64,000 bases of DNA from an uncultured candidatus Porisulfidus sp. (GTDB lineage Bacteria; Pseudomonadota; Gammaproteobacteria; Poriferisulfidales; Oxydemutatoraceae), in contig OZ244052.1 of NCBI GenBank assembly GCA_965215125.1, positions 1,248,001-1,312,000 on the forward strand, written 5' to 3'. Below, piece after piece: positions 29,053 to 40,276 of this stretch. The translations under genes and the position numbers were made by a program. The first letter of the stretch is position 1, and every line of letters begins with the position of its first letter. The notes below the pieces were generated by a model. That model saw only the letters and a list, made by a program, of their open reading frames with translations. It had not been told where the DNA came from and made no database searches.

Positions 29053-30627
29053 TTGTTCACTGCAACATACGATTTTATGACTCATTCCCGACAAAACATG
29101 ACTGATATATTTTCAGGCTATATTGAAGCAATTGAAAATTGCAAGGTCTACGATGTGGCCTCCGTTACGGCACTGCAAGCTGCCCCCTATTTATCAAATC
29201 GCTTCGGGCAAAACATACTTTTGAAACGAGAAGACCAACAGTCGGTTTTCTCGTTTAAACTGCGGGGCGCATACAACAAAATTGCTCAATTATCGGATAA
29301 AGAAAAACAGGCGGGTATCGTCGCCGCTTCGGCGGGTAACCATGCGCAGGGAGTTGCGTTGGCAATCCAAAGATTGGGTGTCAAAGCAATTATCGTTATG
29401 CCGTTGACTACGCCGATGATTAAAGTCAAGGCGGTTGCACTGTTCAACCCGGATATTGTGCGGCACGGAGACACCTACGACGAGGCATATGCATATGCAG
29501 TCAAACTCGCCGCAAAACACGGCTACACTTTCGTACATCCGTACGACGACCCGCAAGTAATCGCCGGGCAGGGCAGCATCGGCATGGAGATACATCGGCA
29601 ATGCAAAGAGTCCATAGACGCTGTCTTTGTTCCGGTCGGCGGCGGCGGGTTGATTGCCGGGGTCTCGCTGTATTTGAAAAAATTCCGCCCGCAAACAAAA
29701 ATCATCGGGGTTGAGCCCGATGATGCGGCAACCTTATATACTGCCCTGCAGCATGGTAAGGCTGTCACGCTGGATAAAGTCGGATTATTCTCCGACGGTA
29801 CTGCGGTACGATGCATCGGCGAAGAGACTTTCAGAATCTCAAAAGCGTTGGTGGACGAAGTTATATTGGTCAACACCGATCAGATATGTGCTGCGATCAA
29901 AGATAATTTTGACGAAAATCGCACCTTGCTGGAGCCCGCCGGTGCGTTATCGATAGCAGGCTTAAAACGCTATATCGCTAAGTACCGATGTCTCAATGAA
30001 ACTTTGGTCGCTATCGCTTCGGGAGCGAATATCAATTTTGACCGCCTGAAGCATGTTGTCGAACGTTATGAGATTGGCGAGGGCACCGAATCCTTGTTGT
30101 CAGTGACAATACCGGAGCGACCGGGCAGTTTTGTCGACTTTTGTCGGACTATAGGCAAGCGAAAACTTACCGAGTTTAATTATCGTTATTCCGACAATGC
30201 CGAAGCCCGAGTATTTGTCGGCTTAGAGTTTGAGAATCTCAAGCGCGACAAACCCGAGACCATTGCCTCATTGCGGCGCAAAGGCTATGAAGTCGTCGAT
30301 CTCTCGGATAACGAAATGGCAAAACTACATATACGACACATGGTCGGCGGGCATCTGCAAGATAAGCAAGAAAACGAGCAATTATGTCGTTTTCAATTCC
30401 CGGAAAGACCGGGTGCGTTGCTGGAATTTTTGGAGTATTTTGCCACCCAAGACCTGAATATCAGCCTATTCCATTTTTCCAGCCACGGTTCGGAATATGG
30501 ACGCATACTGGTCGGTGTGCAAGTACCGTCCAATAAAATAGATCACTTCAAAAAAGCGATGCGGGAGTCTCGTTACCAATATCAGGACGAGTCGGATAAT
30601 CCCGCGTATCAACTATTTTTACGCTAG
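29053..30627 (+). CDS. ilvA: Biosynthetic threonine ammonia-lyase
   Basis: SFKLRGAYN, ASAGNHAQG, VGGGGL, regulatory PERPG domains; start uncertain. Confidence 0.96.
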   Translation: MFTATYDFMTHSRQNMTDIFSGYIEAIENCKVYDVASVTALQAAPYLSNRFGQNILLKREDQQSVFSFKLRGAYNKIAQLSDKEKQAGIVAASAGNHAQGVALAIQRLGVKAIIVMPLTTPMIKVKAVALFNPDIVRHGDTYDEAYAYAVKLAAKHGYTFVHPYDDPQVIAGQGSIGMEIHRQCKESIDAVFVPVGGGGLIAGVSLYLKKFRPQTKIIGVEPDDAATLYTALQHGKAVTLDKVGLFSDGTAVRCIGEETFRISKALVDEVILVNTDQICAAIKDNFDENRTLLEPAGALSIAGLKRYIAKYRCLNETLVAIASGANINFDRLKHVVERYEIGEGTESLLSVTIPERPGSFVDFCRTIGKRKLTEFNYRYSDNAEARVFVGLEFENLKRDKPETIASLRRKGYEVVDLSDNEMAKLHIRHMVGGHLQDKQENEQLCRFQFPERPGALLEFLEYFATQDLNISLFHFSSHGSEYGRILVGVQVPSNKIDHFKKAMRESRYQYQDESDNPAYQLFLR

Positions 30628-30911
30628 CTTTTTGCAGTTGCCAAACCGGATATCGCTTTTTTGACCGAATAGATTAAAAAGATTGCAATCATGACCAGCA
30701 ATGCCCCGGTGAAAAAGCTAAGTGCGTATAAAGAGATGACGCCACCGATAGCGGCTAATAATATAACTGTGTTTATGGTGCCCAATAGTCCTTGGACGAA
30801 GTTTCTTTGCATTTTATCTATTAGATTATTAAAAAATAGAAATACGAACCACATAATTATTATCAGCACACTACATACTAAAAAATAAAACAAATGCATT
30901 AAAAAATCCAT
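30624..30911 (-). CDS. Small hypothetical membrane protein
   Basis: Three hydrophobic segments; AGGAG RBS upstream. Confidence 0.55.
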   Translation of the reverse strand: MDFLMHLFYFLVCSVLIIIMWFVFLFFNNLIDKMQRNFVQGLLGTINTVILLAAIGGVISLYALSFFTGALLVMIAIFLIYSVKKAISGLATAKS

Positions 30912-30981
30912 AATCGATCTCCTTGAGTTAAACGGTATTTTCGATGTTCCATAATATCATAATTAGTATCGTTCACTCATT

Positions 30982-31100
30982 GGGAATTATATAGATAACT
31001 TGACAGATTTATTAGACCGCCTTGCTACCCTATCTTTTTGACGCTTCACAGACCAGCCAACGCTGCAATCTCCACGCCCGGTTGCGGTATTCCCGACCGC
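30982..31100 (-). ncRNA. Predicted omega-RNA scaffold overlapping the tnpB 3' end (copy 1)
   Basis: Hairpin GCGGU/ACCGC with loop CGGGAAU; hairpin CAGC/GCUG; block UGAAGCGUCAAAAAGAUAGGGU shared with copy 2. Confidence 0.55.
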
Positions 31101-32195
31101 CAAAATGTTTAATGCAGCATTGACATCTGCATTGTCCTCGTGTCCGCAGTGCCGACACTTGAATATCGCTTGTGTTTTGCGGTTCGCTTTATCTACGCTT
31201 CTGCACTTGTTGCAGGTTTGACTTGTATATGCTGGATTGACCTTTCCTACATATGCTTTGTAGCTTAAGCATTGCTCCAGTTTATACCAGCCACTCTTTA
31301 GTATCTCTCTGTTCAAACCTGACTTCGCTCCCACATTCTTGCCCGGGCTGTCTATCGTCCCCTTCGCCGACTTCGTCATGCCTGCTGTATTCAGTCCTTC
31401 CATATAGACGATGTCGTATTTGTCCGCTATTAGCTTGCTGGTTTTATGACACCAATTCGCCCTCGTAAATCGCTCCGCTTGATACGCTTTCTGTAATTTA
31501 TACTTCGCTAGCTTACGCCTGTTGCTTCCCTTAACCCGTCTAACAACCATTCGCTGATAACGCTTGCGTCTTGCTTCCTTACGCTGTAAGTCGGGTAGGT
31601 AATACATGGTCCCGTCCGACAATGCTATCTGTCCCACATTCCTATCCAAACCCACTTCCTTTAGCATCTGCGATTTGTCCGCTAGCTCCACTTCATAGCA
31701 AATATATGCATACCAATTACCACATTCATACTTGACTTGACCCGATACAAACTTCTCACCTTTATACCTATCACCACCGGCAAACTTCATCCAGCCTACC
31801 TTCTGTATATACAAGTGACAACCCGATAGTTTTGCCGATTGATAATTGATTGGGAATGACGGGCTATGCGTATATTTGCCGTGAAACTTCGGCAATCCGT
31901 TGTTGCTCTTGAAAAATCCTTTGTATGCTATCTCTATCGGTTGTAATGATGATTTCACGATATAAGCGGAATAACCTTGCAACCACTTGTCGCAATGCTT
32001 TCGCAATGTCGTAAATTGCTTGCCTAGGGTGAAAAAGCTAAACCGGCTCTCGCCATAATACTCGTATTCATCCTTTAACTCAGCTACAAAGTGATTCCAA
32101 ACATAACGACACGCTCCGGCAGTTCCGTGTAATTGCCGATGCTTTTCATAGGTCGCTGGATACAAGCGATATCTGATTGTTCTATGAGTTTTCAT
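30987..32195 (-). CDS. tnpB: RNA-guided endonuclease TnpB
   Basis: N-terminal YRLYP...GACRYVWN; RuvC-I GLDRN, RuvC-II YMEGL, zinc finger CNKC/CRHC, RuvC-III NADVNAA. Confidence 0.93.
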   Translation of the reverse strand: MKTHRTIRYRLYPATYEKHRQLHGTAGACRYVWNHFVAELKDEYEYYGESRFSFFTLGKQFTTLRKHCDKWLQGYSAYIVKSSLQPIEIAYKGFFKSNNGLPKFHGKYTHSPSFPINYQSAKLSGCHLYIQKVGWMKFAGGDRYKGEKFVSGQVKYECGNWYAYICYEVELADKSQMLKEVGLDRNVGQIALSDGTMYYLPDLQRKEARRKRYQRMVVRRVKGSNRRKLAKYKLQKAYQAERFTRANWCHKTSKLIADKYDIVYMEGLNTAGMTKSAKGTIDSPGKNVGAKSGLNREILKSGWYKLEQCLSYKAYVGKVNPAYTSQTCNKCRSVDKANRKTQAIFKCRHCGHEDNADVNAALNILAVGNTATGRGDCSVGWSVKRQKDRVARRSNKSVKLSI

Positions 32196-32308
32196 CGATG
32201 TAATTTAACATTTCTTTGTCAAGTTATCTATATAATTCCCCACTCATTTATCCGAGAATTATATACTTTAAGTATGTAAATCATGTTTTACCGATTTCCA
32301 CTTTGTTT

Positions 32309-33102
32309 TTAGTTCCTTTTAAGCCACTTACATGCTAATCCATAAGTTGTAACTTGAGGCTCAACATTCTTCTTAGGGTGGATATTAGATTTTAGTATCT
32401 CAAATACAGGTTCGCTATCTAACCTAAACTTGATTTGTTTATAATGGCTTTTGCTATCATGTCTATCCTCAATCTGCCCTATTTGCTTATTATGCAATAA
32501 TGAAAAAAACACTACTTTTTGATCATCCATTTGTTTACTGTGCCTGGCTTTAGAATTGCGGAGCGAGACATTAGTGCATAAAGTGTCAACTACTTTATTC
32601 TTGTGGAATACATGAAAATGTTTTTTCTCTTTCAAGTCTTTTGCGAGACCAGGATATATACTAAGATAATCGGCATTCCCACCATCAAATAATGCCTTAG
32701 CAAGTAATGATGCTAACATTTTTGGTTTGTTTAACTCTTCTAAGAGTCTTCTCATGTGTGGCTGAAGTCGTAGCTTTGCAGCTGTTTTATTAGAAAGATA
32801 TTCATCATAAGTTGTTGGGTATGCATCAAGACAATCAATCATTATGTTTGCAATGTTCCCTAATCCTTGAAAGATAGTGTTAGTTTTAAGGCGATTTTAC
32901 TGTATAAGAAAATCTGCCACCGCTCCCCAGCTTTTACTGAGTGATACCTGTCTTGTTCATCCGCAACATCTTTTTTGTCTGTATGATGCCCTCTTTGTAC
33001 ATGACCACCAATTAGTTCAGCAAAATGCTCTTCATTTGCATGCCCAGCTCTTTTTACCATGCTTGCGTGTTCGCTGGTCATAGCTCTTCGTTTGGGCATC
33101 AT
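32309..33102 (-). pseudogene. Putative type II restriction endonuclease, split by a frameshift
   Basis: Overlaps the MTase stop; adding one A at the 32895-32898 run joins the 80-aa and 177-aa ORFs (YSKNRLKTNTIFQGLGNIANIMIDC); D..D...SVK PD-(D/E)xK-like motif. Confidence 0.65.
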
Positions 33103-34025
33103 CCCAACACCAAGAGTTCATGTGAATGTTTTATATGATTGTTTGTTCCGTTCTCTATTCTATTCTTACCTATCCTTGTTTCACCTTGCCCTAGGGTGTA
33201 TTGCCACTTTACTTCTATAATATTAAAATCAGAATACCAGTCTCTTATCGTCTCACAATCATTATATGAAAGAATAAACCCGCCCTCATGCTGATATAAT
33301 AAATCGCGCAACAGTTCATGATTGAATTGGTTATGGTGAACAGGGAAGTTTCTTTGTGGATATATTCCCTTAAACATCTTGCTATTACCATTCAAATAAT
33401 AAGGGGGGTCACAATACATGAACGAATCTATGTGTTGAGGTATAGTTCTACTAAAGTTCCCCGAACATACCGATAGATTGGGACAAGTGAAGTTTCTAAC
33501 TTTATCAAGCAACCTAATATATCTGCTCTCTTCTTCGTATATTTTTGACATCCAACCTAAAAAACCAGGTCCGTAAGATAGATTATGATTAAACCAATAA
33601 TGGGCAGCTAAAGATACTTTGTCCTCTATTTTTTGTGACTTGTCCCAATGCTTACGAAGTCTGTTCTTTACTTGTGAATATTTACTCTTTGTTGGTTTCC
33701 ATTTGCACAAGCGGCTATATAGTTCTAATGGTTTCTTTAGTTGTATTTGCCAGTAATTTGTTAATATATTGAAAACATCATAACCTTTGACTTTTAACCC
33801 TAGCTCTTTGGCGCAAGCAATTTCAACACTTCCACCACCAAAAAACGGAGATACTAATGAAGTAATATCAGGTGGCAGATGTTCTATTATGTGTCCAACA
33901 GCAAGGGTTTTACCACCAGCATATCGCAATGGTAGCCCATTATACCTAGAATACTTATATTTGCCTTTTCCATTAAGCCTATTTAATAAAAGGCTTTGCC
34001 TAGTGTCCGGCTTTAATGCAAACAT
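33099..34025 (-). CDS. Dam-like (D12 class) N6-adenine DNA methyltransferase
   Basis: LRYAGGK, SPFFGGGSV, DPPY, LSYND. Confidence 0.9.
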   Translation of the reverse strand: MFALKPDTRQSLLLNRLNGKGKYKYSRYNGLPLRYAGGKTLAVGHIIEHLPPDITSLVSPFFGGGSVEIACAKELGLKVKGYDVFNILTNYWQIQLKKPLELYSRLCKWKPTKSKYSQVKNRLRKHWDKSQKIEDKVSLAAHYWFNHNLSYGPGFLGWMSKIYEEESRYIRLLDKVRNFTCPNLSVCSGNFSRTIPQHIDSFMYCDPPYYLNGNSKMFKGIYPQRNFPVHHNQFNHELLRDLLYQHEGGFILSYNDCETIRDWYSDFNIIEVKWQYTLGQGETRIGKNRIENGTNNHIKHSHELLVLG

Positions 34026-34054
34026 GGTGACTACTTTATCAGTTTTTTATAAAG

Positions 34055-34440
34055 TTAATCTCTTGCCTCACGGACACGCCGAAGCATAAACCAAAACGAC
34101 TTCTGAGTAATACCTAGTTCCTTTGATAGCTGTAAAGACGATATACCCTTTCGCGCGGTCACTACCAAATAAATCGCTATATCCCAGCATTGCAAAGGTA
34201 GTAGCGATCTGTTCATTTCGCTATCGGTTTTTATCGTAAATGCTCTGCGACAACGATTGCAGTAATGATTGTACTTTCTAGGTTTGTATATTTTAACCTT
34301 CTCTATTTTTTTACATTTAGGACAGATAGGTTTGCTTCCCAAATCACACCTTCAATCTACCTAACTGCTTTTGTTTCAGTAGAAAATATTTTAAGTAATT
34401 CAGCTATGCTGATTGTTTGAGTCGTGTGTTTCAATTTCAT
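34055..34440 (-). pseudogene. IS1595-family transposase N-terminal remnant
   Basis: ISIAELLKIFSTE...*, frameshift, then PICPKC...CNRC zinc ribbon and RKGISSLQLSKELGITQKS.WFML.R.REA; DDE domain missing. Confidence 0.85.
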
Positions 34441-34559
34441 CTCCATATTTTGCATACTAAAATATCAAAAATGGAAATAGTGTCAAGTGTCTTACAGATT
34501 TTATTTTCAATATTTTTAGTAGGATTTTTACATACTTAAGTATATGATTCTATTTATTT

Positions 34560-35420
34560 TTAACGGGGTGTGTCGGTTTTTGCGTTTTTCCATCGCCAGC
34601 GAGGTTGTCCCCAATACCAGTTTGCAGGAGCCTGTTTTAAGCCTTGTGCTAACTTTTGCGTGTATGATGTCAGCAAGGCTCTTTCGTGTCCTTCGCCTTG
34701 GTTTTCAATAGGTTCAAGATAGATTCTATAATATCCCTTTTTAATTTTTTCGGTTCTTACGAAGAACACAGCGCATTGTGCCGTGCAGGCAAGCTGTGCG
34801 GTGCCCGAGTAAAAATCGGTATGTTGTCCTCCTAGCCATTTCAATTCAATGGATTTTTGGTGACGATCGGGTTCACGGTCCGATAATACATAAAAAAAGC
34901 ATCGTTGCTTGCGATGTTTTACTAGCGTTTTCACAAATTGTTTATGGGGTAGCGGCGTGCCACCGAAGCAGCTTCTTATGGTATACACCAAACGCTCCAG
35001 ATGAGGCGATCTTAGGGGTTTGTAGACACCGTAGAAAGGATGCCCGCAATGCAAAAATAGTACTTGAGCCGCCCATTCCCAGTTGCTTTGATGGCTGGAT
35101 AATAACAGCACCGGTCGGTTTGTATCGACATCGTCTAAGAGGTCGGGATTCATCAAACGAGCACGCTTTTGCAACCATTGTTTTCTGCACGATAACAGTT
35201 TCACCGTTTCAACCAAAAACTCGGTTTGTAAGAAATAATATCTTCTGCATAAAGCACGAATCTCGTTTGCGTCATACTCGGGGAATGCTCCGTACAGATT
35301 ATTTAATACTACCGTACGTTTAGCGCGTAGGATATAGCAATTAAAGGCGGCTAATAACCAAGCAATCGCATAGAGCAACGATAACGGCAGGCGAGATATA
35401 AGAACAGCTAAGCGCATCAT
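34560..35420 (-). CDS. Lipid A biosynthesis acyltransferase (LpxL/HtrB family)
   Basis: HQSNWE, YKPL, LSD, P.NWYW...RW. Confidence 0.85.
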   Translation of the reverse strand: MMRLAVLISRLPLSLLYAIAWLLAAFNCYILRAKRTVVLNNLYGAFPEYDANEIRALCRRYYFLQTEFLVETVKLLSCRKQWLQKRARLMNPDLLDDVDTNRPVLLLSSHQSNWEWAAQVLFLHCGHPFYGVYKPLRSPHLERLVYTIRSCFGGTPLPHKQFVKTLVKHRKQRCFFYVLSDREPDRHQKSIELKWLGGQHTDFYSGTAQLACTAQCAVFFVRTEKIKKGYYRIYLEPIENQGEGHERALLTSYTQKLAQGLKQAPANWYWGQPRWRWKNAKTDTPR

Positions 35421-35649
35421 TTGTTATATTTTAAGCCATAGCGGTTTGCGCAAAGTGATTTTTATTGCAACCCGATGAATAGGCAGCTATTGGTTTGGGA
35501 AATCCTATAGGTGGGGTATTTACCGGCGAGTTTTTGTATGTATAACGCTTTTGAGCATAGAAAATTGTCTGTTCGTATTGAATCATCGTCGTTTAACTGG
35601 TATATTCATCAATACTTTTTCACAACTTAACAAAAAGGAGGATATTATA

Positions 35650-36012
35650 ATGAGTGAAGCAAGTTTATACGAACGCCTAGGCGGACCGGATAAAATACGC
35701 GAGATTTGTACGGATATATACGATAACCATGCAAGCAACCCTAGAATTAAGAGTCGCTTCGTGGATAGTAATCGTGATGAAGTTATCCAGAGAGTCTGGG
35801 AATTTTTCTGTTCCGGTATCGGCGGACCCGAAAGCTATAGCGGCCAAGATATGAAGACTGCACATCGCGGGATGAATATCGCTGCCGATGAGTTTGTAGA
35901 GGTCTGCGATGATGTCATCGCAGCCTTAGATAAACATAATGTCGGGCAAAAAGAGAAAGACGAAGTGCTGTGCATTTTGTATTCTATGAAACCCGATATC
36001 GTCGGTGGCTAA
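35650..36012 (+). CDS. Group 1 truncated hemoglobin
   Basis: SLYERLGG, GGPESYSGQDM..AH.GMNI; AAGGAGG RBS. Confidence 0.92.
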   Translation: MSEASLYERLGGPDKIREICTDIYDNHASNPRIKSRFVDSNRDEVIQRVWEFFCSGIGGPESYSGQDMKTAHRGMNIAADEFVEVCDDVIAALDKHNVGQKEKDEVLCILYSMKPDIVGG

Positions 36013-36119
36013 AGCCTCGATATAAAAACTGCCCTAGCCATGGAGTATTTAAGTCCACAACATAGTTAAACTATGTTCATTATTTATGGAGGGAGGCTAG
36101 GGTCAGCTTAAGCGAACCG

Positions 36120-37394
36120 ATGGAGTGGCAGGTTTCACAGTACCCTCGATTATCGGCACAAACCGTTGAGTTTGCTAATAAGCTAACTCATAAAGCATCA
36201 AACCATTTAGAATTTATCTCGGGTGGGCAGCCGTATGTGCTATGCCCCGATACCACAGTACCGTCTGCCGAGTTTCCTGCCGCCGTGCAGTGCAGTATCA
36301 ACGGACACAGTGTGCGGTTCGGTCTTGATTCCGGTGTGTGCGCTTTCCTGTTGTCGGATTGGCTACCGCTAGAGGATGTTGCGGCGTTGCCGGATAATTT
36401 GAAAAAATCGGTCATAATAGCCGTCTTAAATCCAATTGCCGATTTTTTTTCTCAACATTCCGTCGGAAGTTTTAATGTGGAAGACATTGAATGTCAATCT
36501 GCCTATCCGTCCCACTCAAGTTTATTTTTTAACCTATCGTCCATGAACGGAACTGTAGTTGGTCGGATATTTGTCAATGTTGATGAGCAAACGACGGACA
36601 TGCTACATAAAATATGGCAGGCTACTGCGAAACCTGCACCGCTCGGCAATACCGAAGAATTACCTGTTTGGGTTGAAGTTATTGCTGCCGGCACAAAGCT
36701 GAGCTTGAATGAATTTAGTGAATTAAGGAAAGACGATATTATTTTGCTCGATATGGCATTTTCGGAACTAAAAGAAGTCTATGCTAGAATTAGTGATAAT
36801 ATATGCTTTTCATCCGTAATTGATGGAAACAAGTTAATAATTCAAAAACCGGGAGGGGTCGTAATGGCAAGTGACACACAACCGCCGATAGACCGAAATA
36901 TTGAAGATCAGGCAATTGATGAAGAGATTGCCTTAGGCGAAGACCAAATGCCATTTTCTAATGAAGACGAACCCGACGAGGAATCGTTGGATGAGCCTTC
37001 TATGGGTGCGGAAAATTCCGACGAGGAATCGCTGGATGCGTCTTCTGTGGAAACAGAAAATTCTGTTGAAGAGCCTTTTGATACACTACTTTCCGGCGAG
37101 ACATCCCCAGCTGTATCCGAGGCTGCCGATAGCAAACGAACCGTCTCTCAATTGAACGATCTAGGAGAGTTGCCGGTAGAATTGTTGTTCATCGTAGATC
37201 AATTCAAGACGACCGTGAAAGAGGTTGAGCGTATCAAGCCGGGCTATGTATTTGAATTGAAAAATAAAGCGATAGGGCAAGCCGAGATTCGTGCCAACGG
37301 GACACTCATCGGTGTCGGTGAGTTGGTACAAATCGAGGACCGTGCGGGCGTGCGCGTCATAAAGTTGTACGGACAGACGAATACCGAAAAATGA
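36120..37394 (+). CDS. sctQ: T3SS cytoplasmic ring protein SctQ (YscQ family)
   Basis: Two SPOA domains (ELPVWVEV; ELPVEL...ANG.LIGVGELVQI...GVRV); upstream of sctRSTU. Confidence 0.85.
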   Translation: MEWQVSQYPRLSAQTVEFANKLTHKASNHLEFISGGQPYVLCPDTTVPSAEFPAAVQCSINGHSVRFGLDSGVCAFLLSDWLPLEDVAALPDNLKKSVIIAVLNPIADFFSQHSVGSFNVEDIECQSAYPSHSSLFFNLSSMNGTVVGRIFVNVDEQTTDMLHKIWQATAKPAPLGNTEELPVWVEVIAAGTKLSLNEFSELRKDDIILLDMAFSELKEVYARISDNICFSSVIDGNKLIIQKPGGVVMASDTQPPIDRNIEDQAIDEEIALGEDQMPFSNEDEPDEESLDEPSMGAENSDEESLDASSVETENSVEEPFDTLLSGETSPAVSEAADSKRTVSQLNDLGELPVELLFIVDQFKTTVKEVERIKPGYVFELKNKAIGQAEIRANGTLIGVGELVQIEDRAGVRVIKLYGQTNTEK

Positions 37395-37513
37395 CTAATC
37401 AACCACTGCCGGTGGCAAAGTGCTACTTAATTAAAAGACGACACTAGTCGCATGATAAAGGGGGGGAAATTCTTGTATATACTCGTTGAGCGAGCTTGTG
37501 GAGGGGACTTCTG

Positions 37514-38164
37514 ATGGAAGGTCTGCCTTCTCCTTTTACGTTAATCCTGATTATAGGTGCGATAGGGATCATGCCGTTTGTGATTGTTATGGCAACTTCT
37601 TTTGCCAAGTTAGTTATAGTCTTTTCATTGATACGCAACGCTTTGGGTATTCAACAAATACCTCCGAATACGGCTTTGAACGGTTTGGCTCTGATATTAA
37701 CGGTATATATCATGATGCCGGTCGTTATCGCAAGCTACGAAGTTATTGCGAGGGAAGACCTACGCTTGGACGATAAAGAGTCGGTAATACAGGTTTTTAA
37801 GGAGGCGTCGGAACCGTATCGCAACTTTCTGCGCAAACACAGCGACCCTAGAGAGAGAGAGTTTTTTATGGAGACTGCATACAATTTGTGGGGATACGAA
37901 CATGTAGAGGAAATGACGGAAGACAATTTATTAATTCTAATGCCGTCTTTCACCGTGAGCGAGTTGACCACTGCCTTTGAAATAGGTTTTTTAATTTACC
38001 TGCCGTTTATAGTTATAGACTTGATCGTGTCCAATATCCTTTTGGCGATGGGTATGATGATGGTCTCACCGATGACTATATCCTTGCCGTTCAAGCTACT
38101 TTTGTTTGTTTTTCTTGACGGCTGGACCTATCTTATTCACGGTTTGGTGCTTTCTTATCAATAG
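37514..38164 (+). CDS. sctR: T3SS export apparatus SctR
   Basis: TSFAKL, RNALGIQQIPPN, LAMGMMMVSPMTISLPFKLLLFV; lacks the FliP signal peptide. Confidence 0.93.
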   Translation: MEGLPSPFTLILIIGAIGIMPFVIVMATSFAKLVIVFSLIRNALGIQQIPPNTALNGLALILTVYIMMPVVIASYEVIAREDLRLDDKESVIQVFKEASEPYRNFLRKHSDPREREFFMETAYNLWGYEHVEEMTEDNLLILMPSFTVSELTTAFEIGFLIYLPFIVIDLIVSNILLAMGMMMVSPMTISLPFKLLLFVFLDGWTYLIHGLVLSYQ

Positions 38165-38166
38165 TC

Positions 38167-38436
38167 ATGACCGAAGGTGAAATAGTCCAACACGCCAGTA
38201 ATGCGATGCTACTCGTGCTGATGTTATCGATGCCGCCGATTGTCGTAGCGGCGTTGGTGGGTTTGATAGTTAGTCTGATTCAGGCTTTGACGCAAATACA
38301 AGAGCAGACTATATCTTTTGCATTTAAGCTCATCGCAATAGTCGTCACGATGTTTTTAACTATGGGTCAATTAGGAGAGGAATTGTTTGCCTACGGTGAG
38401 ATTTCCTTCCGCAAGATTTCCGAGGTTGTCTTTTAA
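38167..38436 (+). CDS. sctS: T3SS export apparatus SctS
   Basis: LSMPPIVVAALVGL, QALTQIQEQT. Confidence 0.93.
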   Translation: MTEGEIVQHASNAMLLVLMLSMPPIVVAALVGLIVSLIQALTQIQEQTISFAFKLIAIVVTMFLTMGQLGEELFAYGEISFRKISEVVF

Positions 38437-39236
38437 TGGAAGTGTTGACTGCTCTTTTCAAAGACTATATCGCTATCTATAGTTTGGCGTTACCGAGGCT
38501 TATCAGTATCTTTGCCATGCTCGCCTTTTTAAGCCAGCAGACTCTAGGCGGTGCTTTGACGAGAAACGGCATACTGCTTAGTTTGGCACTGGTGTTGCAT
38601 CCTGTAGTTTCTGCCGAAATGGAAACTTTGGATTCACTACCGCACGGGATTTTGTTATTAATTATTATTAAAGAGACACTTATAGGTGTGGTTATGGGTT
38701 TTTCGGTTGCCTTAATATTTTGGTCGGTAGAGGCGGTCGGTGCTTTTATAGACAACCAGCGCGGTGCCACTATGGCAAGTTCTATGGATCCTCTGAGCGG
38801 CGATCAATCCTCACCGATGGGTACTTTTTTTGTCAACACGATTACCGCAATATTTTTCGTCACCGGATTATTTTCCATGTTCATGGCAAACGTTTATGCG
38901 AGTTATAAGATATGGCCGGTTACATCTTTTTTCCCCGATCTGAATTTTGATTTGGTGATTTTTTTACTCAAGCATTTCGGGCAAATTGTCCTTCTAGCCG
39001 TGCTGTTGGGCGCGCCGATAATTATTGCGATGTTTGTGGCAGAATTCGGTTTGATGCTAATCGGTCGTTTTGCACCGCAGCTCAATATCTTTTTTATGTC
39101 TATGTCTATAAAGAGCGCGGTATCCAATTTTATGTTGGTGATATTTTTGGGAATAATGGTTGCCTTTTTTAGTACCAAGTTGGGAACTATAACCGAGATT
39201 TACGCAGAATTGAACGAAGTATGGAGTGAACGATGA
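38436..39236 (+). CDS. sctT: T3SS export apparatus SctT
   Basis: KE.LIG, IDNQRGATM, RFAPQLN. Confidence 0.93.
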   Translation: MEVLTALFKDYIAIYSLALPRLISIFAMLAFLSQQTLGGALTRNGILLSLALVLHPVVSAEMETLDSLPHGILLLIIIKETLIGVVMGFSVALIFWSVEAVGAFIDNQRGATMASSMDPLSGDQSSPMGTFFVNTITAIFFVTGLFSMFMANVYASYKIWPVTSFFPDLNFDLVIFLLKHFGQIVLLAVLLGAPIIIAMFVAEFGLMLIGRFAPQLNIFFMSMSIKSAVSNFMLVIFLGIMVAFFSTKLGTITEIYAELNEVWSER

Positions 39237-40276
39237 GCGGTAGTAGCGGTAATAAGACCGAACCTCCTACGCAGAAAAGGCTGCGCGACGCGCGTAAAAA
39301 GGGGCAAGTTGCCAAAAGCAAAGAGGTGGTTAGTGCTTCGCTAATTATTTTTCTACTCGGTTATTTGTGGCTCTCCAGCGATTACTACATGGAGAAATTT
39401 CGCCAGCTGATCGCCCTGCCGGTGACTACCTATGGTATTGATTTTGACGCGGCACTGGGCGAAATAATAGTAGAGACTTTCAAGTTTGCAGTTGTTTTGG
39501 TTTTGCCGGTAGTCGGTATCGCGCTGATAGTCGGTATCGCCGCTAATTTTTTGCAAATCGGTGCGTTGTTTGCACCGGAAGTGATTAAAGAGGCCCCTAA
39601 AAAGCTCAATCCCGGCAAGGCGTTGAAAAATATATTTTCTAGAAAAAATTTCATTGAATTAATTAAATCTATTCTCAAGATTGTATTTCTAGGGTATTTG
39701 ATCTACTTGGCATTGCGCCACAATATTGGTAATTTAATCGGAATCCCAAACTGCGGATTAGCATGTTTGTTGCCGATATTCGGTAACCTGATGGGAAAGA
39801 TTATCACCTATGCAATCATCGCATTTATAATCGTTGCGGTTGCCGATTATTTTTTTCAGAAATTCGATTACATCAAAAACCTGAAGATGACCAAAGACGA
39901 AGTCAAACGGGAGTTTAAGGAAATGGAGGGCAGCCCGGAAATAAAAAGCCATCGTCGCCAATTATTTCAAGAAATCGTCAACAGCCAAGTTGCTAATAAT
40001 GTGAGCCGCTCAAGCGTTATTATCACCAACCCCACCCGCATGGCAATCGGCATCTATTACGATGAGGAAGAGACACCCTTGCCCGTGGTGACCCTGAAGG
40101 AACAAGGGACGATGGCAAAACGCGTCATAGAAATCGCCCGTGAAAAGGGCATCCCGGTGATGGAAAATGTGCCGCTTGCACATGCACTGATGGATCAAGC
40201 CGATATCAACCAGTACATTCCGTCCGATTTAATCAAACCGATTGCCGAAGTGCTGCGTGTTATAAAAGAGCTCTAG
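39233..40276 (+). CDS. sctU: T3SS export apparatus SctU
   Basis: KTEPPT.KRLRDARKKGQVAKSKE, KMTKDEVKREFKEMEGSP, NPTR. Confidence 0.93.
   Translation: MSGSSGNKTEPPTQKRLRDARKKGQVAKSKEVVSASLIIFLLGYLWLSSDYYMEKFRQLIALPVTTYGIDFDAALGEIIVETFKFAVVLVLPVVGIALIVGIAANFLQIGALFAPEVIKEAPKKLNPGKALKNIFSRKNFIELIKSILKIVFLGYLIYLALRHNIGNLIGIPNCGLACLLPIFGNLMGKIITYAIIAFIIVAVADYFFQKFDYIKNLKMTKDEVKREFKEMEGSPEIKSHRRQLFQEIVNSQVANNVSRSSVIITNPTRMAIGIYYDEEETPLPVVTLKEQGTMAKRVIEIAREKGIPVMENVPLAHALMDQADINQYIPSDLIKPIAEVLRVIKEL

Follow-up and report, generated by a model that had tools for sequence, protein, structure and literature searches.

How does a gene for an RNA-guided nuclease of the TnpB family come to be enclosed by the ends of a different kind of transposon? 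The question arises from a 64,000-nucleotide stretch of DNA (the window; positions 1,248,001 to 1,312,000 of contig OZ244052.1, assembly GCA_965215125.1) from an uncultured Candidatus Porisulfidus bacterium. There, an initial annotation had pointed to a tnpB gene lying between long terminal inverted repeats (TIRs) and an 8-bp target-site duplication (TSD), with ends of the IS1595 type rather than those of IS200/IS605 or IS607. IS200/IS605 elements lack TIRs and make no TSDs, according to the sections cited here of a 2026 review (PMC13565253). We find two such elements in the window. Both are very probably members of an extensive group of IS1595-type transposons that are non-autonomous and have tnpB as their sole gene; they would be mobilised in trans, and an omegaRNA, a guide and a target-adjacent motif (TAM) can be predicted for them.

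The genome holding the window is a single contig of 2.22 Mb with 46% G+C, and its relatives are metagenome-assembled genomes (MAGs) of sponge symbionts labelled Candidatus Oxydemutatoraceae and Candidatus Porisulfidus. Copy 1 is a 1,259-bp element (30982-32240) that contains one intact tnpB and, as the initial annotation had it, is bounded by perfect 24-bp TIRs and an exact 8-bp TSD. Copy 2, of 1,269 bp (43209-44477), has the same TIR type, its own tnpB and its own insertion site, as had also been noted; its ends are not perfect, with one mismatch between the TIR arms (23/24; G/T at position 14) and an inexact TSD (7/8). The four matches to the TIR pattern in the window compare with 0.00 expected from 100 shuffles. 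Each element holds a single open reading frame (ORF), on the minus strand. The parts of the two elements are as follows.

30966-30981, minus strand: predicted guide of copy 1, made up of the TSD and 8 further flank bases on the side away from the TIR (assumed length), proposed from the TnpB/omegaRNA architecture in the main text of PMC10691335 and from the flank bias described below
30974-30981: TSD of copy 1 on the tnpB-downstream side, CACTCATT, 8/8 identical with 32241-32248
30982-31005, plus strand: TIR of copy 1, GGGAATTATATAGATAACTTGACA, at the 3′ end of tnpB and holding its stop codon, 24/24 with the other arm
30982-31131, minus strand: predicted omegaRNA scaffold of copy 1, overlapping the last ~48 codons of tnpB and ending at the TIR tip, suggested by low synonymous diversity and a covarying fold
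30987-32195, minus strand: tnpB of copy 1, 402 aa, intact, identified by three TnpB Pfam domains, invariant catalytic residues, alignment with ISDra2 TnpB and dN/dS
32217-32240, minus strand: TIR of copy 1 at the 5′ end of tnpB, 21 nt before the ATG, 24/24 with the other arm
32241-32248: TSD of copy 1 on the tnpB-upstream side, 8/8
32249-32250, minus strand: dinucleotide resembling a TAM, immediately 5′ of the TSD and reading TA on the sense strand of tnpB, from the flank bias; the TAM assignment is putative
43201-43208: TSD of copy 2 on the tnpB-downstream side, TAGCTAAT, 7/8 with 44478-44485; one TSD copy is kept in empty-site contigs
43209-43232: TIR of copy 2 at the 3′ end of tnpB, a TIR pattern match
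43209-43368, minus strand: predicted omegaRNA scaffold of copy 2, from its row in the omegaRNA alignment and the consensus fold
43239-44432, minus strand: tnpB of copy 2, 397 aa, an ORF with three TnpB Pfam domains
44454-44477: TIR of copy 2 at the 5′ end of tnpB, a TIR pattern match
44478-44485: TSD of copy 2 on the tnpB-upstream side, TCGCTAAT, 7/8, seen also in empty-site contigs

Copy 1 is nearly all gene. Its ATG lies 45 nt from one tip of the element, and the TAA stop codon falls within the opposite TIR, 5 nt from the tip. In copy 2, tnpB stops 30 nt short of the element end.

Judged by its residues and domains, the sole gene of these elements encodes a canonical and catalytically intact TnpB. 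Both copies score above the curated cut-offs for PF12323 (HTH_OrfB_IS605), PF01385 (OrfB_IS605) and PF07282 (Cas12f1-like TNB zinc ribbon), and residues 6-376 align with the solved structure of ISDra2 TnpB (8EXA/8H1J) with an E value of 7e-25. The RuvC triad and zinc finger had been described as intact, and all seven residues concerned (D184, E266 and D354; C328, C331, C347 and C350) are invariant among 14 aligned relatives. Over amino acids 1-355, the ratio of nonsynonymous to synonymous substitution rates (dN/dS) was 0.07-0.17 for the four measurable pairs that had diverged furthest; the youngest pair, 97% identical, gave 0.39. The low values over this region indicate that TnpB is under purifying selection.

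A scan of species-representative genomes confirmed 533 relatives, from which 79 loci spanning 35-99% protein identity were kept. Their hosts include Gammaproteobacteria, Caldilineaceae, Paracoccaceae, Bacteroidota, Dadabacteria and others, and almost every locus comes from a MAG series associated with sponges. Under a strict rule (an ungapped pair of GGGnnTTAT-type TIRs matching at 17 or more of 24 positions), 47 of the 79 loci have TIRs; in 33 of these the TSD matches at 7/8 or better, and in 28 it is exact. The clade is thus TIR-bound. With further copies from relatives included, 56 non-redundant insertions have a TSD of at least 7/8. These clean elements are 1,247-1,605 bp long, contain no second gene, and in 42 cases have the stop codon within the TIR. 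Their neighbours are unrelated housekeeping genes, with no conserved neighbourhood, and neither Y1 transposases nor resolvase/serine families were found among the 150 flank ORFs scanned (of 177 listed). When six IS1595 transposases were used as tblastn queries, the flanks of only 2 of the 79 loci were matched and the interior of an element never was. Because they contain no DDE transposase, the elements are, on sequence grounds, non-autonomous derivatives of IS1595 rather than IS1595 insertion sequences proper, and their movement would need a transposase borrowed from IS1595 elements.

TnpB proteins from other sources behave differently. The same caller made no TIR+TSD call at any of 21 full-length TnpB loci from viral contigs (25-37% identity), a collection in which TnpBs were found only at 25-41% identity. 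A plasmid TnpB with 35% identity adjoins an IS200/IS605 tnpA, and a metagenome scan with the TnpB query gave only three weak loci. In a quick maximum-likelihood tree of 120 rows, which left out one locus (L131) as too short, a single branch with an SH-aLRT of 100 sets 99 ingroup sequences apart from the 21 TIR-less TnpBs, a split that partly reflects sampling, given that the two groups were drawn from different collections. Rows with clean and with decayed ends are interspersed. Close and distant homologues within the clade share TIR/TSD ends and are without tnpA, whereas IS605 ends or tnpA genes in close homologues would have spoken for an IS605 origin.

Which transposase could recognise these ends? 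A PF12762 (DDE_Tnp_IS1595) profile search of the genome found two places (E 1.1e-39), corresponding to two ~1.3-kb IS1595 copies that are 99.8% identical, have the TIRs GGGACTTATAGCGATTAGTTGACA and GGGAACTATAGCGATTAGTTGACA, and show an 8/8 TSD at one copy. By manual count, these TIRs agree with the tnpB-element TIR at 19 of 24 positions. Closer partners are present in relatives. The window TIR pattern occurs in 22 of 61 related genomes, where such TIRs bound three kinds of element: transposase-only elements, tnpB-only elements and miniature inverted-repeat transposable elements (MITEs). ORFs of the transposase-only elements match PF12762 with E values of 1e-37 to 1e-43, mostly together with PF12760 (the IS1595 zinc ribbon), and the elements have 8-bp TSDs, matching at 7/8 or better in 26 of them. 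Eight base pairs is the TSD length of the IS1595 family, in agreement with the present data. One arm of a transposase element in genome G004 (L136) is identical to the copy 1 TIR over 24/24 positions, and one arm of another, in G001 (L051), is identical over 24/24 to an arm of copy 2. Transposase elements with the same TIR were found in G001, G004, G006 and G022; eight copies were fetched from G006, all with 8/8 TSDs.

The match extends beyond the TIR type of the window. Further TIR variants (...GCAAAATCTGCA, ...CTAAATCTACA and ...ATTCTGCACA) are common to transposase and tnpB elements, and the variants co-vary between the two kinds of element in at least five subfamilies. Among the 56 tnpB elements, 5 match a sampled transposase-element TIR at 24/24 positions and 17 at 22/24 or better. 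IS1595 transposase homologues are present in 28 of the 61 related genomes. In family f1, TnpB occurs in 9 of 19 genomes, all nine of which also have an IS1595 transposase homologue, as do 5 of 5 distant TnpB-bearing genomes tested. The assignment of the ends to IS1595 rather than to IS200/IS605 or IS607 is thus borne out, with 24/24 TIRs shared with PF12762-encoding elements and TSDs of 8 bp. The proposal of a non-autonomous family mobilised in trans by an IS1595-type transposase is likewise supported by the shared TIRs, the 8-bp TSDs, the lack of an own transposase and the co-occurrence, which make movement in trans the probable route. Of the intact transposase with matching TIRs that the initial annotation suggested looking for, the 24/24 arms were found in the congeneric genomes G004 and G001, while this genome offers 19/24 only.

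IS1595-type elements that hold other genes occur nearby and in relatives. A decayed IS1595-type element at 32254-34552, 5 bp from copy 1, has TIR-like ends (GAGAATTATATACTTTAAGTATGTA and, inverted, TAGAATCATATACTTAAGTATGTA), a truncated transposase N-terminus (34064-34431, minus strand) with ~42% identity to IS1595 transposases, a D12-class N6-adenine DNA methyltransferase (33099-34025, minus strand) and two ORFs without a Pfam match. It could represent an IS1595 element whose passenger genes belong to a restriction-modification system. Three IS1595 elements of 2.9-3.9 kb in other genomes (L045 in G038, L046 in G018 and L056 in G032) have the same TIR type and 8-bp TSDs; they contain a transposase and passenger ORFs without a Pfam match, with no tnpB inside.

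The short TIR pairs, or MITEs, are internal-deletion derivatives of tnpB or transposase elements. One of 140 bp (L198) joins the first 46 bp of a full tnpB element to its last 94 bp, with 98-99% identity, a second (L199) keeps 65 + 128 bp, two more (L200 and L054) keep the last ~120 bp, and another (L201) derives from a transposase element.

The genome as a whole has 13 TIR matches with at most three mismatches, against none for the reversed pattern. Five of the elements so marked are full tnpB elements; the others are a 588-bp derivative with an internal deletion, a decayed copy interrupted by an IS3-family element, and a fragment. Six TIR pairs are present in the genome: two have an 8/8 TSD, three a 7/8 TSD and one a 5/8 TSD. 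A 1,899-bp TIR pair was considered as a candidate element carrying both transposase and tnpB and was rejected, as it is the decayed copy with its IS3-family insertion. That IS3-family element (HTH orfA + rve orfB, ends TGACCTTCCCCC...) lies outside the window, at C1:965824-967274 of the genome, and a comparable IS3 insertion is present in a tnpB element of the relative G003 (L053). Identity among the full tnpB copies ranges from 78 to 97%; the one at genome position 1,725,104, 434 kb away from copy 2, matches copy 2 at 97.3%.

Insertion was examined by aligning contigs of four public runs to window positions 29900-45600. Contigs of two runs from two studies (X6 and X8) represent the empty site of copy 2, joining 43198 to 44476 and 43202 to 44480. 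Both junctions omit 1,277 bases, equal to the 1,269-bp element plus one 8-bp copy of the TSD, and 8 and 6 bases, respectively, fit both sides. Empty-site contigs were thus found in two of the four runs, while copy 1 was present in all four. Copy 2 is an insertion polymorphism, and the empty sites that the initial annotation proposed to look for exist for this copy, with one TSD copy kept.

Several observations weigh against a family of IS1595-mobilised elements as described. The strict TIR rule leaves 32 of the 79 loci without a pair, although all seven of those inspected had decayed TIR-like ends or were cut by a contig end; tnpB is broken in 5 of the 56 clean elements; and among the transposase loci fetched from distant genomes only 4 of 10 have this TIR type, 6 being without a TIR call, with no exact match between transposase and tnpB TIRs within the same distant genome among the 10. 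In the genome studied here, no transposase element has an exactly matching TIR, and the window itself holds only a truncated IS1595 relic. The 78-97% identity among the full copies also does not demonstrate current activity in this strain. Could the elements then be something else? That they are ordinary tnpB-only IS200/IS605 elements (IS1341-group) moved by a Y1 TnpA, with inverted repeats that are coincidental or that come from a MITE with an IS605-type insertion, is barely credible. The protein is typical of IS200/IS605, its 35%-identical plasmid relative adjoins tnpA, and free MITEs with the same TIRs do exist; yet TIRs with an 8-bp TSD recur at 56 independent sites, no Y1 or serine transposase was found among the flank ORFs scanned, and the empty site keeps exactly one TSD copy. 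The nested version of this model is ruled out: the 21 nt between TIR and ATG and the stop codon within the other TIR leave no room for IS605 left and right ends, and the idea of a free MITE shell that had received an IS605 insertion falls because the MITEs are internal-deletion derivatives of full elements. Also highly improbable is that the ends belong to another DDE family and resemble IS1595 only superficially. Several IS families make 8-bp TSDs, and the resident IS1595 matches at only 19/24, but identical 24-bp TIRs bound elements that encode PF12762/PF12760 proteins, and the TIR variants co-vary across the subfamilies. A further possibility is that the elements are dead relics whose TnpB is kept for a host or regulatory function (a TldR-like exaptation) rather than for transposon maintenance. 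The divergence of the genome copies and the lack of an exact partner in this genome would fit this, as would the frequent immobilisation of TnpB described in the main text of PMC10691335 and the failure to find a sigma-70-like promoter in window 30900-32330, which also counts against our own reading. We consider it very unlikely nonetheless, given the intact catalytic residues, the many independent perfect TIR/TSD insertions in relatives, the insertion polymorphism of copy 2, the young deletion derivatives and the lack of a conserved genomic neighbourhood.

If the elements are IS1595 derivatives, where is the guide RNA of their nuclease? The 3′ end of tnpB is under an additional constraint. 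Across 16 elements, overall synonymous diversity was 0.40; in the first 30 codons it reached 0.49-0.54, and in the last ~45 codons, where amino-acid diversity rises, it dropped to 0.13-0.26. Low synonymous diversity together with raised amino-acid diversity indicates constraint at the nucleotide level, confined to the 3′ end. RNAalifold analysis of the last 170 nt of 22 elements gave a consensus fold with 25 pairs, in which 94.5% of cells are paired, compared with 35-46% when partners are slid. Compensatory cells number 53, compared with 5-11 in the slid controls, and the covariation score was reached by none of 500 shuffles. One 8-pair helix has compensatory changes in six of its pairs, and helices as far as 150 nt inside the element also contain G-U pairs and compensatory changes.

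The TIR itself takes part in this fold. A terminal hairpin within the last 62 nt, with the TIR as its 3′ arm, can be formed in 53 of 56 elements, leaving ~10 nt (..TATAATTCCC) single-stranded. Its mean energy is -15.4 kcal/mol, compared with -9.5 kcal/mol for the mirror view of the opposite end. The upstream arm fits the TIR of its own element better than foreign TIRs (-15.4 vs -10.9 kcal/mol, p 4e-10), and no such fit is seen at the opposite end (-9.5 vs -8.7 kcal/mol, p 0.085). By these alignments, the last ~150 nt hold a covarying secondary structure on the tnpB sense strand, with a terminal hairpin that uses the TIR. We infer that this structured 3′ end is the scaffold of an omegaRNA, whose guide would start at the TSD.

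The flanks of the insertions are biased on one side. With all sites oriented by tnpB, the base directly 5′ of the upstream-side TSD is G in 39, A in 14, C in 2 and T in 1 of 56 insertions, that is, a purine in 53. The complement of the +1 base past the downstream TSD is distributed differently (A14 C18 G5 T19; chi-square against the -1 base, p 6e-12). As a control, 26 transposase-only IS1595 insertions have a purine at 11/26 and 9/26 of their two ends (Fisher p 4e-7 and 1e-10). The bias differs by TnpB subfamily, being TA in that of the window and G in most others. TA occupies positions -2/-1 in 8 of 9 elements that have the window TIR type and a TSD of at least 7/8, copy 2 having AA, and in 4 of 4 MITEs of this TIR type that bear the omegaRNA region. 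At an empty site, the flank motif sits where a TAM would lie relative to a guide composed of the TSD and the downstream flank; where the element is present, it is ...TTCCC that stands before this target. The purine or TA flank may therefore be a TAM-like signal. We also considered whether a TA-A flank serves as an upstream stop codon, and rejected this, as the flanks of other subfamilies give no stop codons.

These features can be combined in a scheme that transfers the retention logic of IS605 to a TIR/TSD transposon. An IS1595 DDE transposase made elsewhere would bind the TIRs and move the element in trans. The structured 3′ end would serve as the omegaRNA scaffold, and transcription running through the TIR into the flank would supply a guide made of the 8-bp TSD and the next flank bases. 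In the element-free allele, the target would be preceded by the other flank, which ends in a purine (TA in the subfamily of the window) and would act as the TAM. TnpB would then cut empty or precisely excised sites and spare the occupied site, where the target follows ...TTCCC, and recombinational repair from the occupied copy would restore the element. In its most specific form, the proposal is of an obligately split system: TnpB as a long-lived, passenger-only nuclease of IS1595; a TIR co-opted as the 3′ stem of the omegaRNA, so that transposase, TIR and RNA must co-evolve; a TSD that provides the first guide bases, with the TAM just outside on the tnpB-upstream side; persistence only of insertions beside a correctly oriented TAM; and a nuclease that acts as a post-insertion filter or drive. 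We put this form forward tentatively, as a conjecture with somewhat less than an even chance of being right.

The chief rival to the TAM and guide proposal is a preference of the transposase. The purine 5′ of the TSD could reflect a target or orientation preference exerted by transposase and TIR, or another bias, in which case there would be no TAM and the TSD would lie outside the guide. This is a serious possibility, if not the one we favour: the putative TAM is drawn from just one to three informative bases, which weakens our own interpretation too; some tnpB elements have TIR arms that differ from each other; and in Fanzor transposons the TSD is predicted to lie within the RNA scaffold (sections cited of PMC10711439). 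A transposase preference is harder to reconcile with the transposase-only insertions, which show no bias at either end, with a bias that follows the orientation of tnpB and the omegaRNA even in MITEs, or with its change from TA to G between TnpB subfamilies. The conserved 3′ structure, for its part, could act at the DNA level, in subterminal transposase binding or as a transposition hairpin, or as a terminator, instead of as an omegaRNA. Part of the structure is the TIR itself, the omegaRNA assignment draws on sequence data only, and an Rfam search gave no match at E values up to 1, which also tells against our assignment. A DNA-level role is nevertheless unlikely, in that constraint and structure are one-ended, as the contrast in synonymous diversity between the two ends of the gene illustrates, and hairpin energy and own-TIR fit are likewise confined to the 3′ end. 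Compensatory changes and G-U pairs extend well inward of the TIR, and position and size match those of the TnpB guide RNAs in the main text of PMC10691335.

How much of this was known? The arrangement had been presented as a departure from known prokaryotic TnpB systems, which overstates its novelty. That bacterial TnpBs reside in TIR/TSD transposons of the DDE type and move in trans is already known: the main text of Altae-Tran et al. 2023 (PMC10691335) describes six DDE-associated TnpB branches (DDE-1 to DDE-6), all with inverted terminal repeats, places the tnpB 3′ end within 250 bp of the transposon end, and suggests trans-mobilisation for solo TnpBs with nearly identical ends. That text, supplements aside, names IS630 as a DDE family, with no occurrence of "IS1595" or "ISXO2". 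In the sections cited of PMC13565253, ISL2, IS630 and IS1031 are listed as DDE partners, and the rarity of prokaryotic DDE-OMEGA pairs is said perhaps to reflect a poor fit. Searches for TnpB with IS1595 found, by title and abstract, no paper on this arrangement, and one of the papers found gives the two as separate rows of a gene table; searches for TnpB with DDE, TIR and TSD, in sponge symbionts, or as non-autonomous or in trans found no description of this family. What appears to be new is IS1595 as the partner, the strict division of nuclease and transposase into sister elements with co-varying TIRs, the TIR as an RNA stem, and the TAM-like flank.

The elements can be set beside several known systems. 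With DDE-1 to DDE-6 and the solo TnpBs they share a TIR-bounded prokaryotic TnpB, a tnpB 3′ end near the transposon end and, for the solo forms, proposed movement in trans; the six branches are, however, defined in the main text of PMC10691335 by a DDE gene next to tnpB, whereas here none of the 56 elements encloses a transposase, and just 2 of the 79 loci have one in their flanks. IS1341-group elements of IS200/IS605 are likewise ~1.2-1.6 kb long, non-autonomous, with tnpB as sole gene and a 3′ omegaRNA (predicted here), but lack the TIRs and TSDs that are present here (PMC13565253, sections cited), where no Y1 transposase was found in 150 flank ORFs. ISDra2 TnpB (8EXA, 8H1J) resembles the present proteins in full-length alignment, domains and catalytic residues; ISDra2 itself belongs to IS200/IS605, has a Y1 TnpA and uses a fixed target, TTGAT (same sections), and the elements here are without Y1. 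IS1595 insertion sequences, with their MITEs and cargo cassettes, have in common with our elements the GGGnnTTAT-type TIRs, the 8-bp TSDs and the probable trans-mobilisation of derivatives, the three passenger-gene elements described above being relatives of this kind. The differences are that the cargo here is an RNA-guided nuclease with a predicted RNA scaffold partly built from the TIR, and that the tnpB lineage has kept IS1595 ends across 35-99% protein identity. The closest eukaryotic parallel is Fanzor1/Fanzor2* in TIR/TSD transposons, exemplified by a Fanzor-only TIR/TSD element in Spodoptera frugiperda ascovirus 1a whose predicted RNA scaffold includes TIR and TSD (PMC10711439, sections cited). 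These, too, are nuclease-only, non-autonomous elements with the TIR in the predicted guide-RNA scaffold; in Fanzor elements, the TSD has by prediction become part of that scaffold, while here the variable 8-bp TSD would be the guide start, with the TAM outside, and the hosts are bacteria.

Transposons that excise through double-strand breaks and duplicate their target raise the question of what TnpB or Fanzor nucleases can do for them. The family described here is large (the 533 relatives), compact and represented by many independent insertions, and it shows how a guide RNA may be fitted to TIR/TSD ends. If the reading holds, the split system would be a tractable bacterial model of how Fanzor-type nucleases serve TIR/TSD transposons. 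It makes testable predictions: the mobilising transposase, a guide that starts at the TSD, a TAM (TA in the subfamily of the window, G in most others) and a dual role of the TIR. With a 400-aa nuclease packed into 1.25 kb, such elements also suggest themselves as candidate compact tools for genome editing. The hosts of the TnpB clade span at least five phyla, almost all of them sponge-associated MAGs, suggesting that the tnpB element and IS1595 transposases have spread horizontally across this one habitat as a paired transposase/passenger system.

Between the two tnpB copies, the window holds a core cluster of type III secretion or flagellar export genes (36120-40276; FliN/SctQ-like, FliP, FliQ, FliR and FlhB families). 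Depth gaps appear at 35.1-39.9 kb in three contig runs; contigs of runs X6, X8 and X13 do not cover about 35.7-39.8 kb, which X2 covers, and a contig of X8 passes directly from 32238 to 40289 (side 45, likeness limit 90). There is a weak hint in this of a strain-variable segment, or that another element copy lies beside a repeat. A ~130-bp repeat family, 72-100% identical, is represented at window positions 40305-40399 and at about 100 other places in the genome (for example L043:2429-2558), and contig depth spikes at 39856-40379 in the compared runs.

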